From contig CAMCEE010000002.1 in assembly GCA_945873815.1 (NCBI GenBank), forward strand, positions 103,781 through 167,780: a DNA stretch of 64,000 nucleotides, given 5' to 3'. Shown in pieces: positions 2,428-49,728 of this stretch. This DNA comes from an uncultured Bacillales bacterium (GTDB lineage: Bacteria; Bacillota_I; Bacilli_A; RFN20; CAG-449). The notes under the pieces were generated by a model, which ran no database searches, was not told the DNA's origin, and worked only from the letters and a program-made list of their open reading frames with translations. A program made the position numbers and the translations under genes. How positions within the stretch are numbered: the first letter of the stretch is position 1; the number at the start of each line of letters is the position of its first letter.

Positions 2428-3213
2428 ATGACATTAAAAAGATATAGAACCATCGATATTATTATCTTCGGAATTATTGCAATTGTATTCGAACTAGTTA
2501 ATTATCTTGCTTCAACTTCATTTAAAGATTTTAAATTGGTATTTATGTCTTACACAATTGTTCTCACTATCATTGCGATGTATAGATGGGGGCTAAGGGG
2601 AATTGTTGTTTCTGCATTAGGCGCCTTAAGTTCATGCTTAATTGCTAAGGCTACGTGGAATCAATATCTTGCATACATCTTCGGAAATGTATTAGGAGTA
2701 TTCGTCGGATATATAATATTTCAATACAAAATCGGAAGAAATAAGCTTAAAGAAAAGAAGATACTCTTGATAGCATATCTACTTGTAGATTTTTCTCTTG
2801 TAATTCTTTTTAGAAGTTTAATCATTTCAATTGGAAGTGAAAATGGATTTCTAAATGAATTTATTACTTCTTTAAAAGGATTAATAATACAAGAATCAAT
2901 GAGTATTCTCATTTCATCAGTGATTCTATTAATTGCTTCAATTAAGAAATCTCAATTGATGGTTGAGATGATTGGATACATTAAAGATGTTCAAGATGAT
3001 AAGAAATTGGGTGGATTAAGAGAATTAAAGAGGAGCGAATTCTACAATCAAGATAAGCCGTTCACAGAACCAAGCGAATTTGATGAAAGTAATATTCTTG
3101 AAGGAGGAACGTTATCTCAAGAAGATTTAGATGAACTAGATGAAATGATGAAAAGAGAATTAGAGACTGGTGAAGATGGTCGAACCGAGGAGGAAAAAGA
3201 TGGAACAAATTAG
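2428..3213 (+). CDS. Polytopic membrane protein with acidic C-terminal tail (function unknown)
   Basis: 261 aa with several hydrophobic helices and an RBS-like GAGG upstream. It has a D/E-rich C-terminus and no recognisable motif. Confidence 0.4.
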   Translation: MTLKRYRTIDIIIFGIIAIVFELVNYLASTSFKDFKLVFMSYTIVLTIIAMYRWGLRGIVVSALGALSSCLIAKATWNQYLAYIFGNVLGVFVGYIIFQYKIGRNKLKEKKILLIAYLLVDFSLVILFRSLIISIGSENGFLNEFITSLKGLIIQESMSILISSVILLIASIKKSQLMVEMIGYIKDVQDDKKLGGLRELKRSEFYNQDKPFTEPSEFDESNILEGGTLSQEDLDELDEMMKRELETGEDGRTEEEKDGTN

Positions 3214-4219
3214 CGAAAAAGAAAAAGTCCAAGCGTATTATGAAAAATACCATTGGAAGATTACCTTTAAAAGAATGCTAAAGGATTGGCGTGTCTATTT
3301 AATGCTTATACCATTAATTTTCGTATTTGCATTATGGCGTTATCTACCAATGTATGGACTAACAATTGCTTTTAAACAATATGATACCGGTTTAGGTATA
3401 TTGGGTAGTAACTTTATCGGTTTAGCTGCTTTCAATGAATTAGTAAATGATGTATTGTTCTGGAAAGCATTTAGAAATACATTTATGCTTTCGTTCTATG
3501 GACTTATGTTTGGATTCCCTATGCCTATTATTCTTGCTTTATTATTTAGTGAAGTAAAGAATCAAACGTATAGAAGTATTTTACAAATCTGTTCTTATTT
3601 ACCAAAGTTTGTATCGTTAGTTGTCGTTACATCATTAGTTTCATTATTGTGTAGTGAAAGATTAGTCGATTTAGATGGTACAGTTGCTTATAATGGCGGT
3701 ATTATTACTAGAGTATTAACATCATTAAACATCATTGGACAAGATGCAAAATTAATGAAAGATCCACAATATTTTAGAGCAGTATATCAAGTTTCAGGTA
3801 TTTGGGAAGCTGCTGGTTATGGTTCTATTGTATATTTTGCGGCAATTCTTTCTATTTCACCAACGAATTATGAAGCTGCAAAAATGGATGGAGCAAATAA
3901 ATGGGCACAAATTAGATACGTTACATTCCCAGGTATTGCTTCGACATTAACAATTATGTTGATTCTTGAAATTGGTAAATTATTTACTGTAGGTTATGAG
4001 AAAGTATACTTACTTTACAATAAGACAAACTGGGAAACTTCAGATATCGTTGCAACTTACGTTATGAGAGCTGCTGGTATGGCTGCAGATGGAACTGAAT
4101 CAATCTTATCTAAAGCAATTGCATCCAGTGCTGACTTATTTAATGCACTTATTGCTATGTTACTCGTTATTGGATCAAATATGATTGCAAGAAGAGTATC
4201 TGATACATCGTTATATTAG
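3200..4219 (+). CDS. ABC transporter permease, LplB/MalF-type (polysaccharide/oligosaccharide uptake)
   Basis: EAA-loop signature EAAKMDGANKWAQIRYVTFPGI and 6 predicted TM helices. The start is moved to the ATG at 3200, which follows an AGGAGG RBS. The track start at 3170 overlaps the upstream gene. Confidence 0.8.
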   Translation: MEQISEKEKVQAYYEKYHWKITFKRMLKDWRVYLMLIPLIFVFALWRYLPMYGLTIAFKQYDTGLGILGSNFIGLAAFNELVNDVLFWKAFRNTFMLSFYGLMFGFPMPIILALLFSEVKNQTYRSILQICSYLPKFVSLVVVTSLVSLLCSERLVDLDGTVAYNGGIITRVLTSLNIIGQDAKLMKDPQYFRAVYQVSGIWEAAGYGSIVYFAAILSISPTNYEAAKMDGANKWAQIRYVTFPGIASTLTIMLILEIGKLFTVGYEKVYLLYNKTNWETSDIVATYVMRAAGMAADGTESILSKAIASSADLFNALIAMLLVIGSNMIARRVSDTSLY

Positions 4220-5193: not shown

Positions 5194-7362
5194 ATGAATA
5201 AAAAAATTCTTTTAAGCTCATTGTTATGTGTTGGTGTCCTCGCAAGTTGTGCTCCAACAACATCTGAAGGAACTACTTCAGAAAAACCTTCTTCTGCAAT
5301 TCAACATGCAGAATTATCTATCGCATTAAACTACGATGGAAACAACAATAGAATTACATATCAAGGTGATAAAACTTACACTACACCTAGTGGAAAAGAA
5401 ATTAAAAAGGGTGACTATAAACCAGTTTGGAGTGAAGTGCAAAAACTTATGGATGTTACTTTAACAGAAGTTGAAAAAGCATGTACTGGAAAAGCAGTAG
5501 AGTATTTCAAGAATAACTGGAAACAAAACCAATATGCTGATTTAGCTGCAGCAAACGTTACTGATATCAACACATTCTCAGTTGATGGAAACAAAGAAAC
5601 AATTCTTGACTTATCAAAATATTTTAATAAACTTCCAAACTTCAAAGCATTCTTAGATGCAAACCCAGCTGTTAAGATGTCAATTACATCTGCAAAACAT
5701 GGAGATGCAACAAAAGGTGCAATCTACTATTTCCCATATTTTGATGGAAATGATGATCTTGAAAAAATGACATTGGTTAGAGCAGACTATGTTAGAAAAT
5801 TATTTGCAACAGGTACTGAATTAGATACAAATGCTTCAATTCTTGGAACAAATGTTAAATATACTCCAACAGAAGCAGATACATCAGGAAATGCAAAAGC
5901 ATATAGCGTTGTTGTTCCAACTGCTTTAGGTAGTAAAACAACAAAGAAAATTACAAAGACTGCAACAAAAAATATTATCACAAGACAAAATGAATTAATT
6001 GCAGCAGGTACAGCTACATCAGCAGCATTAGTTGCACAATTCAAACAATATGTTACTGAAAGATATGGCACACAATTCGCTAAAGTTGAAGATTTATTCT
6101 TAGGTGTTGACTCATGCTATGATGCAGATGAAATGGTTGCGTTAATGAGAATTGTTAAAGCTTCACCAAAAGCATTAACTGGTGATGCAAATAAGAAAAT
6201 GGTTGCATTTGTTCCTCGTGAATATAACAACTCACGTATTGCAGATCTCTATAGATGGGCTGGTCAATTATGGGGCGTAAGAGGTGTTGAATCTCGTTCA
6301 GGATATTTATACATCAACTCACAAAATAAACTCGTTGATACTCGTGGATCAAACGAAATTGTCGAATTATTAGAAAACTTAAATAAGTTATATAGCGAAG
6401 GTTTAATCTTAGAGAATTTCCAAAACGAAAAATCAGTAGGTGTAAGTAATGGTAAATTCGCAGCAAGCTTAATTGTTGGTACAGGTAATGATTCTTACGC
6501 TGGATTTATGGAATATGACTATTCTCAAACTCAAGGTGTTTGGAATGATGATGCTGCTTCAAAAGCAGTTGAAGGATATGACTTTAGACCAATTCTTGGT
6601 AGTGTTGCAGATTGGGATGATGGGGATAATTCAACTTCATACTATCATTTCACAGAATCTTGGAGATCAGTAAAAACTCAAGGATTTATTATTAATGCAG
6701 CTCTTGAAAGTGATCCAGTAAAATTAGACGCAGCATTAAGATTATGCGATTACTTCTATTCTGCAGCTGGACAACAATTGAATTCATATGGTCCTGAAGC
6801 AGATGGATATACAAAAGGAACAATTGATTATCAAGGAAGAAAAGTAGCTAAATTTACAACTGAAGCATTAGCACAATTAAATGATAAAAATATTGGTAAA
6901 GGTAGCTATACAGGATATTTAAGAACATACGTTGGTGCAACATTACCAGTTGGTTATGTCAAAGAACAAGGTATGGAATACCAATGTACAAGTGCAAAAG
7001 CTATTGCTGGTTTAGATATTATTAATACAGCAATCTCAGCAGGAACATATAAACACATTACAGCTGCAGAAGTTACAAATCCATTTATGAAGGTGGTTCC
7101 TTCTACTTTCTTCTTAACACAAGGTCAAGCAACAATTGTTAAAGAAGCAGAAGCTGCTAATAAACTTGGATTAATTAACTCACAATCAAGTAAAGAAAAG
7201 TATAATATCTGGGATGACTTTGTAATGTATGGCTTTGGTAGCACAGTTACAGGTAAAGAAACAGATACAAAAGAAGCATACTTGAATAAGATTAATGTCG
7301 AATTTGGCTTAACTAATGTTGTAAAACAATATCAAGATGCTTACGATTTCATGAATGAATAA
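5194..7362 (+). CDS. Extracellular solute-binding lipoprotein of the ABC transporter (LplA-like, unusually large at 722 aa)
   Basis: Lipoprotein signal MNKKILLSSLLCVGVLASC with the Cys at the lipobox, and a strong RBS AAGGAGGAG upstream. Its position after two sugar permeases fits a family-1 SBP. Confidence 0.75.
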   Translation: MNKKILLSSLLCVGVLASCAPTTSEGTTSEKPSSAIQHAELSIALNYDGNNNRITYQGDKTYTTPSGKEIKKGDYKPVWSEVQKLMDVTLTEVEKACTGKAVEYFKNNWKQNQYADLAAANVTDINTFSVDGNKETILDLSKYFNKLPNFKAFLDANPAVKMSITSAKHGDATKGAIYYFPYFDGNDDLEKMTLVRADYVRKLFATGTELDTNASILGTNVKYTPTEADTSGNAKAYSVVVPTALGSKTTKKITKTATKNIITRQNELIAAGTATSAALVAQFKQYVTERYGTQFAKVEDLFLGVDSCYDADEMVALMRIVKASPKALTGDANKKMVAFVPREYNNSRIADLYRWAGQLWGVRGVESRSGYLYINSQNKLVDTRGSNEIVELLENLNKLYSEGLILENFQNEKSVGVSNGKFAASLIVGTGNDSYAGFMEYDYSQTQGVWNDDAASKAVEGYDFRPILGSVADWDDGDNSTSYYHFTESWRSVKTQGFIINAALESDPVKLDAALRLCDYFYSAAGQQLNSYGPEADGYTKGTIDYQGRKVAKFTTEALAQLNDKNIGKGSYTGYLRTYVGATLPVGYVKEQGMEYQCTSAKAIAGLDIINTAISAGTYKHITAAEVTNPFMKVVPSTFFLTQGQATIVKEAEAANKLGLINSQSSKEKYNIWDDFVMYGFGSTVTGKETDTKEAYLNKINVEFGLTNVVKQYQDAYDFMNE

Positions 7363-34860: not shown

Positions 34861-37205
34861 TTGTTCGGAGTAATTTTGATTGTGATTTCTGTGTCATTAA
34901 CAGATAAAACTTCAATGATATAAGGAATCTTCTTTCCGTTATTATCTACGATATTTGAAGTTGTTTTATCACCTGAAGTATAGATGACTTTATTTCCGTT
35001 TTCAACAAATTCAATTAGGTTGTCCTTGCTTCCGTTTTCTTCAGATTCATCAGTGTTACTATTAACTAATCTATAGTAGTCATCATATTCTTCATCTTCA
35101 ACTATTGATGCATCTACGTGATAGATTACTAATCCATTATCGGAGAATAAACCAAAGTGTTCATTATCACTTCCAACATTTAATCCGTCATTTGAATAAT
35201 ATTGTAATAACCAATATTCTTGGAAAATACCTTTTGCATCATTATAGAAATTAGAAATGATGTATGTTTCTCCTGTTTCAGTGAATTTCTTTAATGTAAG
35301 TGTTGTTTCTTTTGCTGCAGTAATTAATTTAGAACTTGTTATCCAACCATATTCCATTTTTGTGAATGCATTATGATCTGCGATTGCACTGTCCATAATA
35401 TCTTTCCCATCTAATGGATTAACTCCACCACTAGCATAATTGTAATAATCTTCTGCACCTAAAACGTGTGAGAATTCATGGATGAATGTGTAGGTATTAG
35501 TTAATTCGCTGTGAGTATAGCTACCATCTAATCCTAATCCTTCATGTAAGAATTGATAAGAAGCCCATAAGTAGTCGTTTGCGTAGACTGAATCATTTGC
35601 ATAATAGTAACAATCGTTGTCTTTTGAAGATGTATCTGCAAGTACGTTCCAGTATCTATAAGCCCATCTTAAGTCTTTATTTGAATCAATAGGTGCGGAA
35701 TTAATTAAGACAATACTATCAATTGTTCCATTGTTATCACTATCGTAATCTGATAAATCGTAACCTTTTGCTTCTAATTTTGTTAATAATTCATGCATTA
35801 ATAATTGATCACCAGAAGCGTATGAATTTTTTCCTGTTTGACCCCAGAAATCTGTACCAGTTGTAGATTCATAGTATGTAAATGGCTTGTCTGCTCTTAA
35901 CCATTCTGTGCAAACATCGAAATCAAGATTTAATTTGCCATTAGATGAAGTATAGAAATAATCATGAAGTGATTGGTAACTAGTTTGTCCAGTAGTACCA
36001 TTAAATGCTTTTTCAAGTTTTTCGATAGTGTAGCCTTTTGAAGATGCAGTATAATCAGAGAAATCAACTGGGATAACTAATACTTTAACATCTCCAGTTG
36101 TAGGCATACCATCTTTGTAATCACCTAATTTTGTAAGGTTATTGATTGTTTGAGTAGTGAATGAAATATCTTTTGTTGCAGCGACTTCTATAGTTTCGCC
36201 ACCAGTTTCACCACCGGACTCACCACCACTTTCGCCACCACTTCCTGTGCCTTGAGCAAATGTGATGTTTCCGATATACATTGCATTAGTGTTTTCATTT
36301 GCTAATCTTATATATGCGAATTCAGAAGAGAAAGTATATTCAACAGTGTGTTTGAAAATATTATTACTTTTATTAATTTTTCCAGTATCTACCGAAGATA
36401 TGACTATTGAATTAGCTTTGTTTGTTGTTTTTTCATTCTCTCCTATTGCACTATTTGACCCATAAACAGTGAATAATTTTAAACTACTTGAATCATCTGT
36501 AGAATATATTTCTACTACTACTTTGTTTGTTGCATTTGGTAATGCAGTTGTATTTCTTATTGATTGAGCGGTGCTGTTTTCAAATTTCTTTATTTGAATT
36601 GTACTAAAATCTTTATATCCTGCTGCTGTTGCAGTTTTCATAATGTTACCAGTAGTAGCATATGTAACATTGTTAACTGTTTTTGTTTGGGTAGATTTTG
36701 GATAACTTCCTGAAGGTAAACCTAAGGAATTGGCATTAATTGTAATACCACTAACATTTACTTCTTCGTCTCCACTTGATGAATCTACTGAGCTAGATAC
36801 CTCGCTAGAAACGCTAGATGAAATGTCTTCTGAACTACTGACTATAGATGAATTTTCACTAGTAGTGTTAGAAGATGAACTCACATTGGTAGAACTAGAT
36901 GAAATACTTTCTGAACTACTGACTACAGATGAATCTTCACTAGTAGTGTTAGAAGATGAACTCACATTGGTAGAACTAGATGAAATACTTTCTGAACTAC
37001 TGACTATAGATGAATTTTCACTAGTAAGGTTAGAAGATGAACTTCCATCGGTAGAACTAGAGGAAATATTTTCAACACTACTTACATTTGAAGTTTTTTC
37101 AGATGTTGCTGTTGATGTGGATTGTGACGAGTTGTTGTTTTTACTACATCCTGCAAGGAGTAGGCCTGTAGTAAGAACTAATAATAATAAATTCTTTTTT
37201 TTCAT
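34857..37205 (-). CDS. Secreted/lipoprotein zinc metalloprotease-like protein (M6/immune-inhibitor-A-like HExxH) with N-terminal Ser-rich tandem repeats
   Basis: Lipoprotein signal MKKKNLLLLVLTTGLLLAGC. It has three 27-aa S-rich repeats and a G-rich linker GSGGESGGESGGETGGE. The HExxH motif FIHEFSHVLGAEDYY is present. Confidence 0.55.
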   Translation of the reverse strand: MKKKNLLLLVLTTGLLLAGCSKNNNSSQSTSTATSEKTSNVSSVENISSSSTDGSSSSNLTSENSSIVSSSESISSSSTNVSSSSNTTSEDSSVVSSSESISSSSTNVSSSSNTTSENSSIVSSSEDISSSVSSEVSSSVDSSSGDEEVNVSGITINANSLGLPSGSYPKSTQTKTVNNVTYATTGNIMKTATAAGYKDFSTIQIKKFENSTAQSIRNTTALPNATNKVVVEIYSTDDSSSLKLFTVYGSNSAIGENEKTTNKANSIVISSVDTGKINKSNNIFKHTVEYTFSSEFAYIRLANENTNAMYIGNITFAQGTGSGGESGGESGGETGGETIEVAATKDISFTTQTINNLTKLGDYKDGMPTTGDVKVLVIPVDFSDYTASSKGYTIEKLEKAFNGTTGQTSYQSLHDYFYTSSNGKLNLDFDVCTEWLRADKPFTYYESTTGTDFWGQTGKNSYASGDQLLMHELLTKLEAKGYDLSDYDSDNNGTIDSIVLINSAPIDSNKDLRWAYRYWNVLADTSSKDNDCYYYANDSVYANDYLWASYQFLHEGLGLDGSYTHSELTNTYTFIHEFSHVLGAEDYYNYASGGVNPLDGKDIMDSAIADHNAFTKMEYGWITSSKLITAAKETTLTLKKFTETGETYIISNFYNDAKGIFQEYWLLQYYSNDGLNVGSDNEHFGLFSDNGLVIYHVDASIVEDEEYDDYYRLVNSNTDESEENGSKDNLIEFVENGNKVIYTSGDKTTSNIVDNNGKKIPYIIEVLSVNDTEITIKITPNK
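36814..37075. repeat. Tandem repeat, about 3.2 copies of an 81-bp unit, inside the metalloprotease gene
   Basis: Unit starts at 36814, 36895 and 36976 give an 81-bp period. The copies are near-identical and encode SSSESISSSSTNVSSSSNTTSE(D/N)SS(V/I)V on the minus strand. Confidence 0.85.
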
Positions 37206-42714: not shown

Positions 42715-43383
42715 ATGAAAAAGATAGTAGTTGCTCCTTCAATATTAGGAGTTCCTTATGAAAATGCACCAAAAATAATTAATGAATTGATAAAATGTAA
42801 TGCGGATATTATTCATTTTGATGTTATGGATGGGAAATTTGTTCCTAATTCTTCCTTTCCAATTGAAGAATATAAATATATTAAAAGAAATGTTGATTCT
42901 TCGATTATTTTTGATGTTCACTTAATGGTTGAAAATGTTTTAGAATATGTTTTACTCTATATTGAGAATAAAGCAGATATCATTACATTTCATTATGAAG
43001 CGGTAAATAAAAAAGAGATTAAAGGATTAATTGAAAAGATACATAATGCTAAGATAAAGGCTGGTATATCAATTAAACCTGATACAGATATTACCGTTTT
43101 AGATGAATTTCTTGATGAGTTAGATTTAGTCTTAATAATGAGCGTTGAACCAGGAGCTGGAGGACAAAAATTCAATGAAACAATGCTTGATAAAGTAGAA
43201 TATTTAAATCAAAAGAGAATAGATAACAAATATCATTATGTAATTGAAATTGATGGAGGTATCAATAAGGATACTGGTAAACAAAGCGTTAATAGAGGAG
43301 TCGATTATCTTGTCGCTGGATCATATATTCTTAAATCTAATGATATGAAAACTGCGATTAAATCGTTAAAAGACTATGAATAA
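42715..43383 (+). CDS. rpe: Ribulose-phosphate 3-epimerase
   Basis: Rpe motifs APSILG, HFDVMDG, DVHLMV and EIDGGI. Confidence 0.85.
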   Translation: MKKIVVAPSILGVPYENAPKIINELIKCNADIIHFDVMDGKFVPNSSFPIEEYKYIKRNVDSSIIFDVHLMVENVLEYVLLYIENKADIITFHYEAVNKKEIKGLIEKIHNAKIKAGISIKPDTDITVLDEFLDELDLVLIMSVEPGAGGQKFNETMLDKVEYLNQKRIDNKYHYVIEIDGGINKDTGKQSVNRGVDYLVAGSYILKSNDMKTAIKSLKDYE

Positions 43384-44029
43384 GATTAATTTATTGATTA
43401 TTTTATTATCTTCTTTTATTATTGCGTTGATTATTGGATTATTATCTTATTTTCAAGATAAAAAGAAAATGTATTCCTTTCTAGGAATGTTCCCTTTTGA
43501 ACTAAAGAGTAATAATAATCCATTACTTAATCTGATATTTAGAATTGTATTAGCTTTATCAATAAGCGCAATGTCAATCGATGCAATATATTTGCTTATT
43601 AATAATATCAGTAGCGTATTTTTAACAAAAACATTAGGATATTTATTAATCGTTTCTTCTATTATCTTGATTACGATGTTCATTATAGATTTTAAGAGCT
43701 TAAACACTCATATTTTAGGAAGTAGTATATTCGTTACATTCGTATTCATTGATTATTTATTTTTTGGATATATTGCTTTAATCAATTTAAACGATAATTT
43801 CTTCTTATATCAAGGTATTATTGCAATTGTTATTTCTGTTATTCTTCTATTAATAATCGTATATCCATCATTGAGTTCGTGGTATAAGATGAAGAAAACT
43901 AGAAATGAAAAAACAAAGGAAGAGAAATATGAAAGGAAGAGAGTAAATATTTTAGCTCTATTAGAATGGATCAGCATATTTTTATTTGTTGGATTATTTG
44001 TATTAATATCATTATCTAATATTATATAG
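43376..44029 (+). CDS. Membrane protein (unknown)
   Basis: 217 aa with 5-6 TM helices. The position normally occupied by thiamine pyrophosphokinase after rpe is taken by this protein. Confidence 0.4.
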   Translation: MNKINLLIILLSSFIIALIIGLLSYFQDKKKMYSFLGMFPFELKSNNNPLLNLIFRIVLALSISAMSIDAIYLLINNISSVFLTKTLGYLLIVSSIILITMFIIDFKSLNTHILGSSIFVTFVFIDYLFFGYIALINLNDNFFLYQGIIAIVISVILLLIIVYPSLSSWYKMKKTRNEKTKEEKYERKRVNILALLEWISIFLFVGLFVLISLSNII

Positions 44030-44032
44030 CAT

Positions 44033-44063
44033 AAAAAAAACTCGTTCATCGCGAGTTTTTTTA
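44033..44063. terminator. Bidirectional intrinsic terminator between the membrane-protein gene and rpmB
   Basis: A8-AACTCG-ttcatcg-CGAGTT-T7. The A-run and T-run can serve both strands. Confidence 0.7.
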
Positions 44064-44067
44064 TAAA

Positions 44068-44283
44068 CTATTCTGCTGCGTTTGAAGCTGCTTTTTTATT
44101 TGTTTTTCTTAATGTCTTAATAGCGCGTGCAGACAATCTCATTGTTACAACGCGTCCGTTGAGATTAACTTTAACAGGTTGTAAATTGACATTCCATCTT
44201 CTACGTGTAGCTATTAAGGAGTGGGAACGTGCATTACCACTGATTGGTGCTTTTCCTGTAATAGGACATACTCTTGCTGCCAT
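44068..44283 (-). CDS. rpmB: 50S ribosomal protein L28
   Basis: MAARVCPITGKAPISGNARSHSLIATRRRWNVNLQ is the canonical bL28 sequence. Confidence 0.9.
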   Translation of the reverse strand: MAARVCPITGKAPISGNARSHSLIATRRRWNVNLQPVKVNLNGRVVTMRLSARAIKTLRKTNKKAASNAAE

Positions 44284-44346
44284 AGTTAACTATCCTCCTT
44301 AATCAAAGCGATTTTATCGCTGACTATGATATAATATCAAAGCTTT

Positions 44347-44477
44347 ATTGATATTGCAAATATTTTTTATTAATAATTCTAAATTTCTAAGCATTTTACT
44401 AATGAATTTATCATTTATCTTCTTAGTCCTTTAGGATATCTATTATTTAGTTTGCCTTTTGTTGCCTTTGCGAATCC
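44347..44477. repeat. 131-bp direct repeat, left copy (target-site duplication of the IS1634-family element)
   Basis: Identical by eye over 131 bp to 46432..46562. It contains a duplicated copy of the last 63 bp of the 46500..47825 gene. Confidence 0.85.
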
Positions 44478-46431
44478 GGGAATTTGACAGAATCTTCAAC
44501 TAAAAATACTTAATCCAGTGACTCTTATACTTAAGTATAATTTTCTCTTTTTTTATGTCAAATTTCTTATTTTTTATGTTGTATGAATTCGTATGATATG
44601 TTATAATATATTTGGTGATATATTTATGCGAGTTTCTTTAATGAAATGTGGTAATGACGATAAGCTCGTCTATATTGTTGACTCTACTCGTGTCGATAAT
44701 AAAATTAAAACTATTGTTGTTGAAAAATTAGGTAGACTTTCTGATTTAAAAAAGAATTATTTTGATCCTATTGCTTTTGCTAAAAAGAGAGCTCTTCAAC
44801 TCACAAACGAAAAAAAGGCTAATGAAGATAACTTTGATGTCAAATTTTTTACTCAACGTATTCTTTCTTCATCACAAACTTCTTTCAATGCAGGCTATCT
44901 GTTCTTGCAAAAGATCTATTACGGATTATCTTTAGATAAAATTTGTTTAGAAATTCAAGAAGATTCTAAAACTAAATATGATTTAAACAACATCTTAAAA
45001 GATTTAATCTTTTCTAGAATTCTTTATCCTTCTAGTAAACTTTCTACTTTTGATCTCGCTCATAATTTCTTAGAATCTCCTTCTTATGAATTACATGATG
45101 TTTATCGTGCTTTAGATTTATTATCTAATAACATTGACCTTATTCAAAAAGAAGTTTACTCAAGTTCTTTGAAGATTTGCAAACGGAATACTAATATACT
45201 TTATTATGACTGTACTAACTTCTTCTTTGAAATTGAACAACAAGATGGCTTTAGAAATTATGGTTTTTCTAAAGAACATCGCCCTAATCCTATTGTTCAA
45301 ATGGGTTTATTTATGGACGGAAATGGAATGCCTTTAGCTTTTAATATTAATCCTGGTAATACTAATGAACAAATTACTCCTAGACCAACTGAAGAAATGA
45401 TTGAAAAAGAATTCGGCTTATCTAAGTTTATCTATTGTTCTGATGCTGGTTTAGGATCATATAACAACAAATGGTTTAATCAATTAAAAGATCGCTCATT
45501 TATTGTTACTCAATCCTTAAAAAAGATTAAATCTTATCTTCTTAATTGGGTATTAGATGATAATAATTGGAATATACCTAAAGATAAATGCGAATTCAAT
45601 CAAATTATTTTTAAATCTCGCCCAATCAATGAAAAAGGAACTATCATTATTGATGACTTAAATTCTCAAACTGAAATTAATCAAAGATTAATTGTCTCTT
45701 TTTCTCCAAGGTATGCAAAATATCAAAAAGAAATTAGGGATGCCCAAATTGATAGAGCCAAAAAACTAATTGCTCATCCAAGTAAATTTGATAAATACTC
45801 ATCCCAAGACTGCAAAAGATTCATTAAAAATATTGCTTTTGATTCTAAAACAGCTGAAGTAATCGCTAGAGATTTATCTTTGGATTTAGACGCGATTAAC
45901 GAAGAAGCTATGTTTGATGGTTATTATGCTTTAGTAACTAATTTAGATGGTTCAGATGAGGAAATCATTAAGATTAATCACAATCGTTGGGAAATTGAAG
46001 AATCATTTAGAATCATGAAAACAGATTTTAAATCTAGACCAGTTTATTTACAGAATGAAAATAGAATTCGTTCTCATTTCTTAACTTGTTATCTTGCTTT
46101 ACTTATCTATCGTATTCTTGAACAAAAGATTAATGATGATTCACATCATTACACTACTACTCAAATTATTTCTTCATTAAAGGAAATGAACTTATTCAAA
46201 TTAAATGATGTTGGTTTTGCTTCTAATTATCAAGCCTCAGAATTATTAGATTCTCTTTGTAAATCTTTTGATTTAGATCTTAATAAACAAGCATATAGAT
46301 CAAATAAAATAAAAAAATTAATTAAATTAAGTAAAAAACCATACAACATTTTCTAAGCACTAAAAAATGGTAAAATTCCCGATTTATCGGAGTTTCTACC
46401 ATTTTTATTTACTTTAATTGTCAAAGATGAG
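44478..46431 (+). mobile_element. IS1634-family insertion sequence (about 1.95 kb) with a single transposase ORF
   Basis: It is bounded by the 131-bp direct repeats. Ends GGGAATTTGACAG… and …CTTTGACAATT(rc) form imperfect terminal inverted repeats. Long, variable TSDs are the hallmark of IS1634-family elements. Confidence 0.75.
44593..46356 (+). CDS. IS1634-family (IS4-superfamily DDE) transposase
   Basis: 587 aa. The N-terminal region …MKCGNDDKLVYIVDSTRV… and the overall length match IS1634/ISMac-type transposases. Confidence 0.75.
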   Translation: MICYNIFGDIFMRVSLMKCGNDDKLVYIVDSTRVDNKIKTIVVEKLGRLSDLKKNYFDPIAFAKKRALQLTNEKKANEDNFDVKFFTQRILSSSQTSFNAGYLFLQKIYYGLSLDKICLEIQEDSKTKYDLNNILKDLIFSRILYPSSKLSTFDLAHNFLESPSYELHDVYRALDLLSNNIDLIQKEVYSSSLKICKRNTNILYYDCTNFFFEIEQQDGFRNYGFSKEHRPNPIVQMGLFMDGNGMPLAFNINPGNTNEQITPRPTEEMIEKEFGLSKFIYCSDAGLGSYNNKWFNQLKDRSFIVTQSLKKIKSYLLNWVLDDNNWNIPKDKCEFNQIIFKSRPINEKGTIIIDDLNSQTEINQRLIVSFSPRYAKYQKEIRDAQIDRAKKLIAHPSKFDKYSSQDCKRFIKNIAFDSKTAEVIARDLSLDLDAINEEAMFDGYYALVTNLDGSDEEIIKINHNRWEIEESFRIMKTDFKSRPVYLQNENRIRSHFLTCYLALLIYRILEQKINDDSHHYTTTQIISSLKEMNLFKLNDVGFASNYQASELLDSLCKSFDLDLNKQAYRSNKIKKLIKLSKKPYNIF

Positions 46432-46562
46432 ATTGATATTGCAAATATTTTTTATTAATAATTCTAAATTTCTAAGCATTTTACTAATGAATTTATCATT
46501 TATCTTCTTAGTCCTTTAGGATATCTATTATTTAGTTTGCCTTTTGTTGCCTTTGCGAATCC
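46432..46562. repeat. 131-bp direct repeat, right copy, contiguous with the intact 3' end of the methyltransferase gene
   Basis: See the left copy. Confidence 0.85.
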
Positions 46563-47825
46563 AACGCCGATATTGTTGTATGTTAGTAAATAGATTCCGT
46601 CTTTAATTCCAATTGATAATTGTTCACCTTTTAGATATTTATGTAGGTTATCTTCATCTATCTCGCATATTAGTGGAAATGATTTTGAAGCATGAGATAG
46701 AGCATGATCGAAATTAAATCCGTATTTTTCTAACGTTCCTAGTTTTATTCCTCCACGAATTATATGAAGACCTTTTATATCGAAAGAATAAGGCATCTGA
46801 TAAAAGGTACCATTGTTTTCATAGATATATCCTGTTTGATCGTTTATTAGCGAATGAATATTCTTATTTCTATCTTGGATAAACTTATTATCATTTAATG
46901 ATAATTCACCAGGCTTTTTTATAAGCGCTAGATAATGTCCTTCTCCATCAAATAGATAAGGGAAAAGATGAATTCCTATGTTATCTTTACTTTTATAGAA
47001 ACAATCTAAATCTGGTAGAGGAACAAGTGTGGCATCTGTATTTGATAAAAGGTGCTTAATCACTTCTTCGTCTTCTTCGTAAGAGAAGGAACAAGTAGAG
47101 TAGACTAATGTCCCACCTGGGCGAAGAAGCGTATATGCTTTTAGTATGAGTTCTTTTTGAAGGGAACTTAATGAGAGAACTTTATTATATGTCCAATCTT
47201 CTTTCATGGATTCTTGTTTTCTAAACATTCCAGACCCTGAACATGGTGCATCTAAAATGATTTTAGAGAATACTCCTTCGTATTTAGGAATAAAGGCATC
47301 TAGATCGTTATTTGTAACTATCGTATTTCTTCTTCCCATACGTTCAATGTTACTAGAAAGAATATGACTTCTAGAAGTTTGTATCTCATTAGATATTAAT
47401 ATTCCTTCATTATTCATTAATAATGAAGCGTGGATACTTTTTCCTCCTGGAGCAGCAGCAATATCAAGCACGATATCATTGCGGTTTGGAGACAAATAAT
47501 GCGACACTAAGGATGAACAAGGCTCAAATAGATAATACACTCCTAAATCGTGATAATACATCTTTCCAAATGGATATTCTTCGATATTATATAAAAAGAC
47601 ATTTGGGACGATAGGATGAGGTTTTACGTTTGGAAATAGATTGATAAATTCTTCTTTTGTCATCTTTTCTTCATTTAATAAAAGAGCATGCTTTACCTCA
47701 TTTTCGTTTAGTGAAGCAATTAGTTTTTCTATTTCAAAATCTGAAAGATATTTTTTTAAGTGTTCTTTGAATTCCATATTTTGATTATAGAAAAATATCA
47801 TTATGTTTCCAATAATAATCTTCAC
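46500..47825 (-). CDS. RsmB/RsmF-family (NOL1/NOP2/Sun) rRNA cytosine-C5 methyltransferase with a C-terminal PUA-like extension
   Basis: Motif IV ILDAPCSGSGMFRK and motif VI GGTLVYSTCSFSYEEDEEV, with both catalytic Cys present. The true start may be an internal Met (MIFFYN or MEFKEH). Confidence 0.8.
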   Translation of the reverse strand: MKIIIGNIMIFFYNQNMEFKEHLKKYLSDFEIEKLIASLNENEVKHALLLNEEKMTKEEFINLFPNVKPHPIVPNVFLYNIEEYPFGKMYYHDLGVYYLFEPCSSLVSHYLSPNRNDIVLDIAAAPGGKSIHASLLMNNEGILISNEIQTSRSHILSSNIERMGRRNTIVTNNDLDAFIPKYEGVFSKIILDAPCSGSGMFRKQESMKEDWTYNKVLSLSSLQKELILKAYTLLRPGGTLVYSTCSFSYEEDEEVIKHLLSNTDATLVPLPDLDCFYKSKDNIGIHLFPYLFDGEGHYLALIKKPGELSLNDNKFIQDRNKNIHSLINDQTGYIYENNGTFYQMPYSFDIKGLHIIRGGIKLGTLEKYGFNFDHALSHASKSFPLICEIDEDNLHKYLKGEQLSIGIKDGIYLLTYNNIGVGFAKATKGKLNNRYPKGLRR

Positions 47826-48034
47826 AATTTATATATAATTTCCTTTCTTTTATAATTAGAATATTCAAATGTCTAATTAAGAAAATATCTTACTAAAAGA
47901 GGTAAGATTCTTTAAACTCATAATCTAATACATGATATTAACAACTTTGTTTGGACATATATTAAGTAACAATATGATATATATTATTTGAATTTGAATA
48001 TAACAAAGAATTCTTGGAAAGAGAGGAATAAATT

Positions 48035-48241
48035 ATGAAAAATAATAACAAGATTAAAGTTAAAACTTTAGATGAAAATGAAAGAATGGTAATTACAAAT
48101 CCGGAAAAGATTGCTTTAATTGAAAGTTTACTTGATCAAATGGATGAGATGGAAGTAAGTTCTGAGAAAAGTAAAGAAATATTTGAATATATTAAAAATG
48201 GTGGTTATTATATAACTGCTGATGAATGGGATGAATTATGA
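48035..48241 (+). CDS. Small acidic hypothetical protein (68 aa)
   Basis: RBS GAGAGGAATAAATT precedes the ATG. There is no recognisable motif. Confidence 0.3.
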   Translation: MKNNNKIKVKTLDENERMVITNPEKIALIESLLDQMDEMEVSSEKSKEIFEYIKNGGYYITADEWDEL

Positions 48242-48426
48242 TAATTGCTTAGACAAATTGTTCTATTTTAAACACCTGATGTAGCTCCTTCAATAAGTGA
48301 TTAATCGAATAAAGCAATTTCTAATAAAAAAAATAGCCAATATTTAGGAATTATTGAAAATGTCATCTATCTTTATTTTTATTCTTATACTATAATAGAT
48401 TAGTCGAAAGAGAGGATGTATTACTT

Positions 48427-49728
48427 ATGAGAATGGTAGACATTATATTGAAAAAAAGAGAAGGAAAGGAATTGAATAATGAAGAAATAAGATTTTTCGT
48501 TAAAGGTTTCACGGAAGGATCAATTCCTGATTATCAAGCTTCTGCTTTAGCAATGGCAATTGTTTTTAAAGGAATGAATAAAAAAGAGATTGGAATATTA
48601 ACCGATGCAATGATGCATAGTGGTGATATTATAGATTTATCTTCAATTCCTGGAGTTAAAGTTGATAAACATTCAACTGGAGGAGTAGGAGATAAAACAA
48701 GTTTAGCAGTAGGACCAATCGTTGCAGCTTGTGGAGTCAAGGTAGCAAAAATGTCAGGAAGAGGACTTGGCCATACTGGTGGTACATTAGATAAACTTGA
48801 ATCGATTCCTGGAGTAAGTATCTCAATAGAAGGAGAAGACTTTATTAAGCAAGTCAAAGATATCGGTATTGCGATAATTGGACAAACAGGAACCTTAGTT
48901 CCTTGCGATAAGAAATTATATGCTTTAAGAGATGTAACTGGAACCGTAGAATCAATTCCATTAATCGCTTCGAGTATAATGTCTAAGAAGTTAGCTTCTG
49001 GCTCAGATGCTATTTTGCTCGATGTTAAATTTGGTTCAGGAGCATTTATGAAAACGTTGGATGATGCGAGAAATTTAGCTCGTACAATGGTTGATATTGG
49101 TGATGAATTACATCGTGATACAAGAGCATGTATTACAGATATGTCACAACCTTTAGGTTTAGCTATTGGTAATAATCTAGAAGTAATTGAGGCTATCAAT
49201 ACATTAAATGGAAAAGGACCTGCAGATTTTGTTGAATTATGTCTCGATGGAGCAGCAATTATGTTGATGCAAGCAGGAATTGTAAAAACAAAAGAAGAGG
49301 GTGAAGCTCTTGCAAAAGAAAAGATCGATAATGGTGAAGCTTTAGAAAAACTATGTCAAATGGTCAAGGCTCAAGGTGGGGATGATTCATATATTAGACA
49401 TCCTGAAAAATTTGAAGTGTCAAAAAATATTATCGAAGTTAAGGCAACAAATAAAGGATATATTAAAGAGATTAATGCACTTGAGATTGGTGAAGCTGCG
49501 ATGAGATTAGGAGCAGGTAGAGCAACTATTGAAGATGTAATTGATCCTAAAGCAGGTATTATATTGAATAAAAAGGTCAGTGATTATGTGAATATTGGTG
49601 ACACTTTATGCGTTGTTCATACAGATATTGATGATTACGATGATATTCTTGAAGATATCAAGAAGGCATATAAATTGAGTGATGTGGAAGTAAAGAAAAA
49701 TCCAATCATTTACGAAATCATACAATAA
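48427..49728 (+). CDS. pdp: Pyrimidine-nucleoside (thymidine) phosphorylase
   Basis: The N-terminus MRMVDIILKKREGKELNNEEIRFFVKGFTEGSIPDYQASALAMAI and the phosphate-binding KHSTGGVGDK motif are diagnostic. Confidence 0.9.
   Translation: MRMVDIILKKREGKELNNEEIRFFVKGFTEGSIPDYQASALAMAIVFKGMNKKEIGILTDAMMHSGDIIDLSSIPGVKVDKHSTGGVGDKTSLAVGPIVAACGVKVAKMSGRGLGHTGGTLDKLESIPGVSISIEGEDFIKQVKDIGIAIIGQTGTLVPCDKKLYALRDVTGTVESIPLIASSIMSKKLASGSDAILLDVKFGSGAFMKTLDDARNLARTMVDIGDELHRDTRACITDMSQPLGLAIGNNLEVIEAINTLNGKGPADFVELCLDGAAIMLMQAGIVKTKEEGEALAKEKIDNGEALEKLCQMVKAQGGDDSYIRHPEKFEVSKNIIEVKATNKGYIKEINALEIGEAAMRLGAGRATIEDVIDPKAGIILNKKVSDYVNIGDTLCVVHTDIDDYDDILEDIKKAYKLSDVEVKKNPIIYEIIQ

Follow-up and report, generated by a model that had tools for sequence, protein, structure and literature searches.

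Since the late 1990s, long target-site duplications of variable length have been recognised as a hallmark of the insertion sequences (ISs) IS1634 and IS1549. The founding case is reportedly IS1634 of Mycoplasma mycoides subsp. mycoides SC, which Vilei, Nicolet and Frey are said to have described in 1999 as flanked by long direct repeats (DRs) of variable length; ISMbov3 is its near-twin. IS1549 of Mycobacterium smegmatis likewise produces long, variable duplications, and DRs of IS1634 and IS1549 together range from 8 to 514 bp, for which no mechanism was proposed (PMC2266710). Typical members of the IS1634 family instead produce AT-rich duplications of 5-6 bp. ISGka5 of Geobacillus kaustophilus, whose transposition was demonstrated by experiment, produces ordinary duplications of 6 bp (PMC8024623), and long duplications are thus not universal in the family. 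According to De Palmenaer et al. (2008; PMC2266710), family members are 1500-2000 bp in size with the terminal consensus C-----YT, and their transposases carry a DDE triad whose second D and E are unusually far apart, along with an incomplete YREK motif. The transposases of the family also bind the beta sliding clamp, through a motif near their C-terminus (Gomez et al. 2015; PMC4549789).

We analyzed a 64-kb stretch of DNA, here called the window, from an uncultured gut organism that is Bacillota-like and AT-rich (30% G+C). An intact, active IS of the IS1634 family has very probably transposed there into the 3' end of an RsmF-like gene and the spacer before rpmB. Like IS1634, the element belongs to the family by transposase HMM, has one DDE transposase gene in ~1.9 kb, and resides in an AT-rich, low-GC host, which in the case of IS1634 is a Mycoplasma. 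IS1549 comes from the Actinobacteria, whose plasmid-borne homologues share only ~23-24% identity with the window transposase. The closest annotated relative found is on a Carnobacterium maltaromaticum LMA28 megaplasmid (NZ_LN846931.1, WP_010051926.1; 46% amino acid identity), and it has the same termini as the window element (CGGGCGTTTGACAC...GTGTCAAAGACAGG).

Self-comparison of the window gave two long repeats of high identity, one of them an unrelated tandem array with an 81-bp period. The other is the perfect repeat pointed out in the earlier note, in which the 131 bp at 44347-44477 recur without a mismatch at 46432-46562, and which cannot have arisen by chance. The bases beyond the two copies differ (T at 44346 versus G at 46431, and G at 44478 versus A at 46563), so the extent of the identity is unambiguous. 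All 131 bp had been taken as duplicated target and the 1954 bp between them as the element. Both the target origin and the intactness of the IS hold up, with each length shifted by a single base. When compared with ~40 related elements, the C at 44477 is the invariant first base of the IS, which therefore occupies 44477-46431 (+ strand, 1955 bp), and the true duplication consists of 130 bp at 44347-44476 (left copy) and 46432-46561 (right copy). The 131st identical base is a coincidence. Assigning the conserved C before GGG to the target was rejected, as a C follows the right duplication copy in only 2/5 cases. A conserved A past the right end was rejected as an IS base because it also starts all five left duplication copies; it is replaced by G or T in two relatives.

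The window holds one copy of the IS. In a 98%-identical copy elsewhere (L015) and in ten copies of an 80% relative, homology spans 1-1954 and stops exactly at the IS ends. The left terminal inverted repeat, CGGGAATTTGACAG (44477..44490, + strand), is kept as CGG(G/A)NNTTTGACA(G/C) in all relatives, and the right one, TTGTCAAAGATGAG (46418..46431, + strand), has the reverse complement CTCATCTTTGACAA. The left end begins CGGGAATT... and the right end, as its reverse complement, CTCATCTT..., so that the inverted repeats are imperfect around the common core TTTGACA. Both termini match the family consensus, and the size of 1955 bp with a single open reading frame (ORF) of 576-587 aa is also that of the family.

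The only long ORF between the repeats extends from 44593 to 46356 on the + strand and amounts to 587 aa when called mechanically, which was the length first given for the transposase. It is indeed a single ORF, but every homologue aligns from the ATG/Met at 44626, which gives a gene at 44626..46356 (+ strand) and a protein that is probably 576 aa long, not 587. In the nearest homologue (P0001) the start was called at the position of 44641, giving 571 aa. Exact-sequence look-ups with the mechanical ORFs of the transposase (587 aa) and of the neighboring methyltransferase (441 aa) returned no match, probably because gene starts are called differently. The protein matches PF01609 and, over residues 39-539, the NCBIfam model NF033559 "IS1634 family transposase" (E = 5.1e-109; 365.5 bits, cut-off 100), which bears out the family assignment made from the sequence earlier; the IS4 and IS701 models score far under their own cut-offs. 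Homologues on finished plasmids carry the RefSeq annotation "IS1634 family transposase". Residues D195, D273, and E458 are invariant among 9 sequences down to 40% identity. The spacer from D273 to E458 is 185 aa, and the motif N451-x2-R454-x3-E458-x6-K465 has an invariant N in place of Y (an altered YREK), so that the transposase shows both the long D-E spacer and the incomplete YREK of the family. Its C-terminus is poorly conserved.

The empty target site is known from ten metagenomic contigs of strains that are 97-99% identical, located through the exact L28 protein sequence. In each of them the 131 bp occurs once, the IS is absent, and the methyltransferase gene adjoins rpmB, which is what the earlier note had expected of related strains, along with its claim that the element parts rpmB from a former neighbor. 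Three of the ten are collinear without gaps at 98.8-99.3% identity. When the window is aligned to an empty site, the blocks stop at 44477 and resume at 46432, reusing locus positions 5807-5937. Even strains with 99.1-99.3% identity across the site lack the IS, and the two duplication copies in the window show 0 differences in 130 bp, in agreement with the very recent transposition that had been proposed. The insertion appears to be younger than the split from strains ~99% identical at the locus and, as ten close relatives lack it, provides a useful marker of the strain. A scan of a genome collection found only four loci, all at ≤66% identity and none from the source species, and a scan of JGI metagenomes with the 22-nt left end of the IS gave no match.

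Long duplications are also evident in relatives of the element. A relative of ~80% nucleotide identity (L020) has a 138-bp duplication (137/138 identical) that abuts its termini, a perfect 68-bp duplication lies at the termini in three assemblies of one locus (L036-L038), one of which is a 134-kb NCBI MAG contig, and a perfect 27-bp duplication abuts those of L026. In the Carnobacterium megaplasmid element, a duplication of ~308 bp abuts the termini and copies the 5' end of the adjoining DeoR gene, leaving an orphan "hypothetical protein". This duplication is longer and older than that in the window (a later gain or loss of 125 bp has altered one of its copies), and it involves the 5' end of a gene, whereas the window duplication involves a 3' end. 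An element on an Aliarcobacter plasmid with 12-bp perfect inverted repeats has a duplication of 682 bp (681/682 identical). The duplications of 130, 27, 68, 138, ~308, and 682 bp all differ in sequence. The window element thus departs from the typical 5-6 bp AT-rich duplication, having 130 bp instead, and shows what is seen in IS1634 and IS1549, namely repeats of tens to hundreds of base pairs, variable in length and sequence and abutting the termini. The earlier note was right about this behavior, documented at 8-514 bp (PMC2266710). The 130-bp duplication is a known exception within the IS1634 family and no ground for exclusion from it.

Neither a long nor a short flanking repeat was found in ~20 related contigs with adequate flanks. 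Several such repeat-less contigs have one flank in common and the other not, which suggests assembly chimeras or IS-mediated rearrangement. In a 48% relative (P0112), a flanking repeat was absent from ten contigs, which were judged uninterpretable; four of them have a common right flank and different left flanks. Elements on Ligilactobacillus, Lactobacillus, Cereibacter, and Rhodococcus plasmids, whose ends are undefined, had no flanking repeat within 1.2-1.5 kb. By inspection, the lengths of 27, 68, 130, 138, 308, and 682 bp show no obvious 10.5-bp periodicity, and the cases are too few. The orientation of the elements relative to the GC skew of the flanks was negative at 17/21 loci, which are non-independent, and opposite in the window; no conclusion is drawn from this.

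The two ends of the element are joined to different kinds of target. In the window, the right IS end joins the target at ATTGAT, 63 bp upstream of where rpmB begins to be translated. This ATTGAT starts the right duplication copy and is near the ATTATA favored at right junctions in this clade. The left IS end joins the target 130 bp away, within codon 421 of the methyltransferase gene, and the intervening 130 bp is now present on both sides. Across the related elements, ATTATA is matched at ≥5/6 positions in 41% of right flanks, compared with 2.8% of left flanks and a background of 2.3%. These counts led us to reject one shared symmetric motif (AAT/ATT) for both ends. Such a product would be expected if two strand transfers struck opposite strands of the target with a 5' stagger of 130 nt, as opposed to the usual 5-6 nt, where the right end picks an ATTATA-like site and the left end attacks a loosely specified site at a variable distance. 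Host replication or repair would then fill the two long single-stranded gaps, giving the duplication. This stagger-and-fill mechanism is inferred from the product only.

Other origins of the repeat can be weighed against these data. That the 131 bp are long terminal direct repeats of a mobile element, and not duplicated target, would account for nothing more than the presence of a repeat at both ends, and the probability we give it is negligible. It is refuted by the empty sites, since each of the ten related strains has a single copy of the sequence, which runs on into both flanks and forms the 3' end of the methyltransferase gene and the spacer. The earlier note had named the occurrence of the repeat at unrelated loci as a sign that it belonged to the element, but a 58-mer of it is found in empty-site loci only and never next to other IS copies, the repeat was absent from all 29 IS-bearing loci searched, and the flanks of L015, as those of all the relatives, are different. 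The repeat is missing beside every other IS copy and is thus target DNA. An assembly artefact, in which mixed reads of empty and occupied sites or a mis-resolved repeat graph produced a false DR-IS-DR path, is also very improbable, if slightly less so. An exact 130-bp repeat around a multi-copy 2-kb element is difficult for short-read assemblers, and many of the related metagenome contigs appear chimeric. Both junctions between the IS and its flanks are nevertheless specific and oriented as an insertion predicts, and the same architecture is present on two finished isolate plasmids and in the three independent assemblies of the L036-L038 locus. Read otherwise, the graph could only mean an empty site accompanied by a free circle that joins the IS to 130 bp of target, which is biologically less plausible.

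The most serious competitor, though it too is improbable, is an origin in two steps, in which two insertions with short duplications ~130 bp apart in sister chromosomes were followed by unequal crossover within the IS. By sequence, the outcome could not be told apart from a long target duplication. Moreover, these ISs occur in multiple copies and clearly rearrange genomes, as seen from the flanks that L017/L023, L019/L022, and L042-L047 have in common in varying combinations. Short duplications, however, predict the same motif at both flanks, and the ATTATA-like sequence is confined to the right, the left being at background. No short duplication of 4-10 bp was found in register in >20 related contigs, with the exception of one 4-bp match. 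Furthermore, six elements from three phyla would each have had to go through the two steps independently.

The insertion left both neighboring genes intact. To the left, rpmB (44068..44283, − strand) encodes the 71-aa ribosomal protein L28 (PF00830, E = 2.9e-20; TIGR00009, 74.5 bits, cut-off 48.3), and an identical L28 protein is encoded on 97 blocks of metagenome contigs. Its complete native upstream region of 131 bp (44284..44414, − strand), which alignment with the empty sites L002, L004, and L007 identifies as the entire RsmF-rpmB intergenic spacer, is preserved because 68 bp of it is inside the left duplication copy. To the right, the gene at 46500..47825 (− strand) encodes a protein with the Pfam domains RsmB-F (E = 1e-43), RsmF_N, and PUA. 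It scored 209.8 and 199.3 bits with the NCBIfam RsmF equivalogs, below their cut-offs of 588 and 690, and is best called an RsmB/RsmF-family m5C RNA methyltransferase. RsmF itself is the 16S rRNA m5C1407 methyltransferase. The gene and its C-terminus are the same as in the empty-site contigs. The 131-bp repeat covers its final 63 nt, equal to 20 sense codons (GFAKATKGKLNNRYPKGLRR) and the stop, and 62 nt of these are within the 130-bp right duplication copy. Their counterpart beside rpmB is the orphan 3' fragment already recognised in the earlier note, which had counted 21 codons and the stop. It consists of 62 nt (44415..44476, − strand), or 20 codons and the stop when the C at 44477 is included. 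The fragment is without a start codon and has an in-frame stop six codons upstream, within the IS. This untranslatable 62-nt piece of a gene is the sole debris of the insertion.

A polar or promoter effect on the methyltransferase gene, as suggested previously, is unlikely because the gene, transcribed towards the IS, still has its entire coding sequence followed by 68 bp of native DNA. Any polar effect could instead fall on rpmB, which is downstream. As both neighbors are intact with native flanks, the insertion is probably close to neutral and matters little for the genome. Promoter-like sites upstream of rpmB (44340..44311 and 44359..44331, − strand) are consensus matches only. An outward promoter-like site, TTGACA-16-TATACT (44534..44561, − strand; 11/12 matches), is predicted to point from the IS left end towards rpmB. 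Promoter-like sites in this region are no commoner than in shuffled sequence, which makes the outward site a candidate only. A bidirectional terminator-like hairpin lies right after the transposase stop (46363..46406), preceded by an A-run and followed by a T-run. It is predicted at -16.2 kcal/mol on the + strand (z = -4.9) and at -22.4 kcal/mol on the − strand (z = -6.2), where it is followed by U6. Relatives have hairpins with following T-runs at the same position. The predicted hairpin probably stops both read-out from the transposase gene and read-through from the methyltransferase gene, in which case rpmB would rely on its own retained promoter or on the outward promoter that the IS left end may contain. 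A search of 43000-48500 against Rfam found no RNA family at E ≤1.

For the family, these data extend a behavior known from Mycoplasma and Mycobacterium elements to uncultured gut Bacillota, a Carnobacterium plasmid, and an Aliarcobacter plasmid, where the 682 bp exceeds the published maximum of 514 bp. Duplications of this kind yield orphan gene fragments that are annotated as "hypothetical proteins" or truncated paralogues, can let an IS insert in a gene without inactivating it, and give recombination enough homology to excise the element precisely. The literature found offers no explanation of the mechanism, and the asymmetry of the junctions described here is a concrete, testable clue. It is conceivable, though on balance we doubt it, that in this branch of the IS1634 family long duplications regularly result from asymmetric two-site target capture and are not an occasional oddity of two elements. 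In such a capture, the right end would take an ATTATA-like site and the left end would hit the opposite strand ~27 to ~680 bp off, with the gaps filled by host replication, possibly via the beta clamp that family transposases bind. If this were true, the long duplication would buffer the insertion, as genes hit at one junction would be restored by the copy, and precise excision of the IS by RecA, through the repeats, could follow later. With elements so abundant in gut bacteria and on plasmids, the unsolved mechanism would then become experimentally tractable.

The segments at 44347-44477 and 46432-46562 are identical throughout their 131 bp, and mismatches just outside the copies leave no doubt about where the identity stops. 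The 64-kb window holds no other long high-identity repeat besides an unrelated tandem array with an 81-bp period (36814-37085; three overlapping 110-nt copies, 87-95% identical). The 1954 bp between the copies hold a single long ORF (44593-46356, plus strand). The left neighbor is rpmB, encoding L28 (44068-44283, minus strand), and the right neighbor is a methyltransferase gene (46500-47825, minus strand) with the Pfam domains RsmF_N, RsmB-F, and PUA. The final 63 nt of the methyltransferase gene fall within the repeat. The 3′ end was thus copied, as the earlier note had it, but translation gives 20 codons plus the stop (GFAKATKGKLNNRYPKGLRR*) rather than 21. The left-hand fragment has an in-frame stop ahead of it, within the IS, and lacks a start codon, in keeping with its description as an orphan gene fragment.

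Many metagenome contigs carry the exact L28 protein. In the ten longest places retrieved (L001-L010), the methyltransferase gene directly adjoins rpmB across a 124-131 bp spacer with no transposase, confirming that the IS parts rpmB from its former neighbor. A reconstructed empty site, consisting of the left flank, one repeat copy, and the right flank, aligned end to end with 10/10 contigs at 96.8-99.3% identity, without gaps in L002, L007, and L010, and L002, L004, and L007 match the window over the entire 131 bp. Against these contigs, one aligned block of the occupied window ends at 44477 and the next begins at 46432, with locus positions 5807-5937 used twice. In textbook terms, a locus segment used twice around an insertion marks a target duplication. 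A 58-mer from the repeat was confined to the empty-site loci; no IS-bearing locus contained it. Together, these comparisons indicate that the 131-bp repeat is a target duplication and not part of the element, and the reading in the earlier note withstood the refuting conditions that it had set for itself. Two strain-level differences were also evident. A 7-bp tandem indel (ATTTATC, 46493-46499, duplicated at 44408-44414), directly downstream of the methyltransferase stop and within the duplicated segment, is present in the window, L002, L004, L005, L007, and L010 and absent from L001, L003, L006, L008, and L009. Only L002 and L003 lack a segment of ~277 bp (~47975-48251, with a 68-aa ORF at 48035-48241) that adjoins the methyltransferase promoter region.

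The transposase matched the NCBIfam model for the IS1634 family (NF033559) with 365 bits (E = 5e-109) relative to a cut-off of 100, while its scores with the IS4 and IS701 models were far under their own cut-offs. Its Pfam domain is DDE_Tnp_1. Homologues on finished plasmids, the closest being from Carnobacterium maltaromaticum (46% identical), are labeled "IS1634 family transposase" in RefSeq, which upholds the original assignment. Nine aligned homologues, with identities as low as 40%, show invariant D195, D273, and E458, a spacer of 185 aa from the second D to E, and the motif N-x2-R-x3-E-x6-K, which has asparagine in place of the family-IS4 tyrosine. The element fits the published description of the IS1634 family, with a long spacer, incomplete YREK, a length of 1500-2000 bp, and termini C-----YT (PMC2266710). 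Since all homologues align from the Met at 44626, the transposase is probably 576 aa long and not 587 aa as first read.

The exact ends were set by comparison with related elements. Alignments of a copy 98.2% identical to the window's element on another metagenome contig (L015), and of a relative ~80% identical on ten contigs (L016-L025), span element positions 1-1954 and then stop, with unrelated flanks. The termini of ~40 related elements follow the pattern CGG(G/A)NNTTTGACA(G/C) ... TGTCAAA(GATGAG/CTCGAG/GACAGG). The C ahead of GGG at the left terminus is invariant, while the base after the right-hand duplication copy is C in only two of five elements (G, T, and T in the other three), so this C is part of the IS. 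The IS therefore occupies 44477-46431 (1955 bp), with both ends agreeing with C-----YT. This leaves 130 bp of truly duplicated target (44347-44476 = 46432-46561), and the match at the 131st base is coincidental. The long duplication first described thus stands, with both lengths, 131 and 1954 bp, shifted by one. The first base past the right end is A in 30/32 unique flanks. It was ruled out as an IS base and is a target preference, because it also opens every left duplication copy and is replaced by G or T in two relatives.

Flanking repeats abutting the termini, different in sequence at each locus, were found at several relatives. These measure 138 bp (137/138 identical) in the ~80% nucleotide relative at L020, 68 bp (perfect) in a 61% amino acid relative in three assemblies, including a 134-kb NCBI MAG contig (L036-L038), and 27 bp (perfect) in a 55% amino acid relative (L026). 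On a Carnobacterium megaplasmid (L050; 46% amino acid identity), the duplication measures ~308 bp, its two copies differing only by a 125-bp indel. It has reproduced the 5′ end of a DeoR gene, leaving an orphan that RefSeq calls a hypothetical protein. The extra ~125 bp lies in the left copy and not the right (1107-1221, NZ_LN846931.1, C. maltaromaticum), has palindromic ends (CCTAGTTATG...CATAACTAGG), and is bounded by the 10-bp repeat GTTCGATTCA; the difference reflects either a small MITE-like insertion or a deletion postdating the arrival of the IS. On an Aliarcobacter cryaerophilus plasmid (L052, NZ_CP099557.1; 26% amino acid identity), a 1735-bp element with 12-bp perfect inverted repeats (CTGAGTTTCTCA) is flanked by 682-bp copies (681/682 identical; 354-1035 and 2771-3452) that span most of a Crp/Fnr gene, so that a "Crp/Fnr family transcriptional regulator" is annotated twice, once as a truncated gene. 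Duplications of 8-514 bp have been described for IS1634 and IS1549, with no mechanistic model proposed (PMC2266710), and the 682 bp at L052 exceeds that maximum. Other family members, such as ISGka5, make ordinary 5-6 bp duplications (PMC8024623), in contrast to the 130 bp here. The comparisons across loci argue that a duplication of such length is a property of the element.

At ~20 further related contigs, no flanking repeat, long or short, was found. Several of these have one flank in common and the other not, suggesting chimeric assembly or rearrangement mediated by the IS. Two copies of a 48% relative lie ~4.2 kb apart in the same orientation on one contig (L045 and L046, ERZ1308171 NODE_241), enclosing a 303-aa gene and a truncated MutL in a composite-transposon-like layout; in other samples, the right flank found here adjoins different left flanks. 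On a 37-kb pig-gut plasmid of Ligilactobacillus salivarius (L051, 464-3345, NZ_CP089852.1), where a search for a flanking repeat found none, the IS1634-family transposase gene directly adjoins erm(C) and its leader peptide. GC skew of the flanks was negative on the transposase-coding strand at 17/21 non-independent loci whose flanks extend for 1.5 kb or more (L011-L050 and the window), meaning that the transposase is mostly antiparallel to its neighbors; the window's wider surroundings are opposite.

In the window, the right IS end is joined at ATTGAT, 63 bp upstream of the rpmB start, and the left end 130 bp away within the methyltransferase coding sequence, with the interval between the joints duplicated. 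Standard DDE chemistry would account for this product if the two 3′-OH ends struck opposite strands of the target, 130 nt apart with a 5′ stagger, and both gaps were then filled by the host. The beta sliding clamp is a binding partner of IS1634-family transposases (PMC4549789), which would offer a plausible route to extensive gap filling. In the main rival scenario, two ordinary insertions with short duplications precede an unequal crossover within the IS, and both flanks would then carry the same motif. Instead, ATTATA is matched at 5 or more of 6 positions in 41% of 32 unique right flanks but in only 2.8% of 36 left flanks (2.3% background), and no in-register short duplication was seen. The two junctions thus differ in target sequence preference, a new and testable clue to the mechanism, and this asymmetry counts against the crossover route.

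The two duplication copies show 0 differences in 130 bp, while related strains diverge from the window by 0.7-3% at the locus, with up to several differences inside the 131 bp. Perfect identity, on which the earlier note had based a very recent transposition, is by itself weaker evidence of age, as 130 bp of homology could also allow gene conversion or precise excision. Recency is better supported by the absence of the IS from all ten related strains, including those 99.1-99.3% identical, which indicates an insertion younger than the splits from those strains.

The duplication has left the methyltransferase gene intact, with 68 bp of native downstream sequence, and rpmB with its full 131-bp native upstream spacer, promoter-like sites included. 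The methyltransferase gene is transcribed towards the IS, making the polar or promoter effect once proposed for it unlikely; rpmB is the gene that might lose any read-through transcription. A strong hairpin at 46363-46406 between A- and T-runs (-16.2 kcal/mol, z = -4.9 on the plus strand; -22.4 kcal/mol, z = -6.2 on the minus strand) is predicted to act as a terminator in both directions. The top promoter-like match of the region (44534-44561, minus strand; TTGACA-16-TATACT, 11/12) lies in the IS left end facing outward towards rpmB and overlaps a perfect palindrome, TTATACTTAAGTATAA, with TATACT conserved at the same position in relatives. This site is only a lead, since promoter-like sites are no more frequent in the region than in shuffled sequence. 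No Rfam families were found in the region.

The empty sites and the like-behaving relatives support, in essence, the interpretation reached at first reading: an intact IS1634-family element inserted here and duplicated 130 bp of its target. Long duplication by such an element is a known phenomenon, not a new one, and the wider value of the finding is modest. The behavior occurs in several phyla, with duplications as long as 682 bp at least. The orphan gene fragments it leaves behind are taken for genes in annotation. The junction-specific target preference offers a testable clue to a mechanism still unexplained in the literature found.
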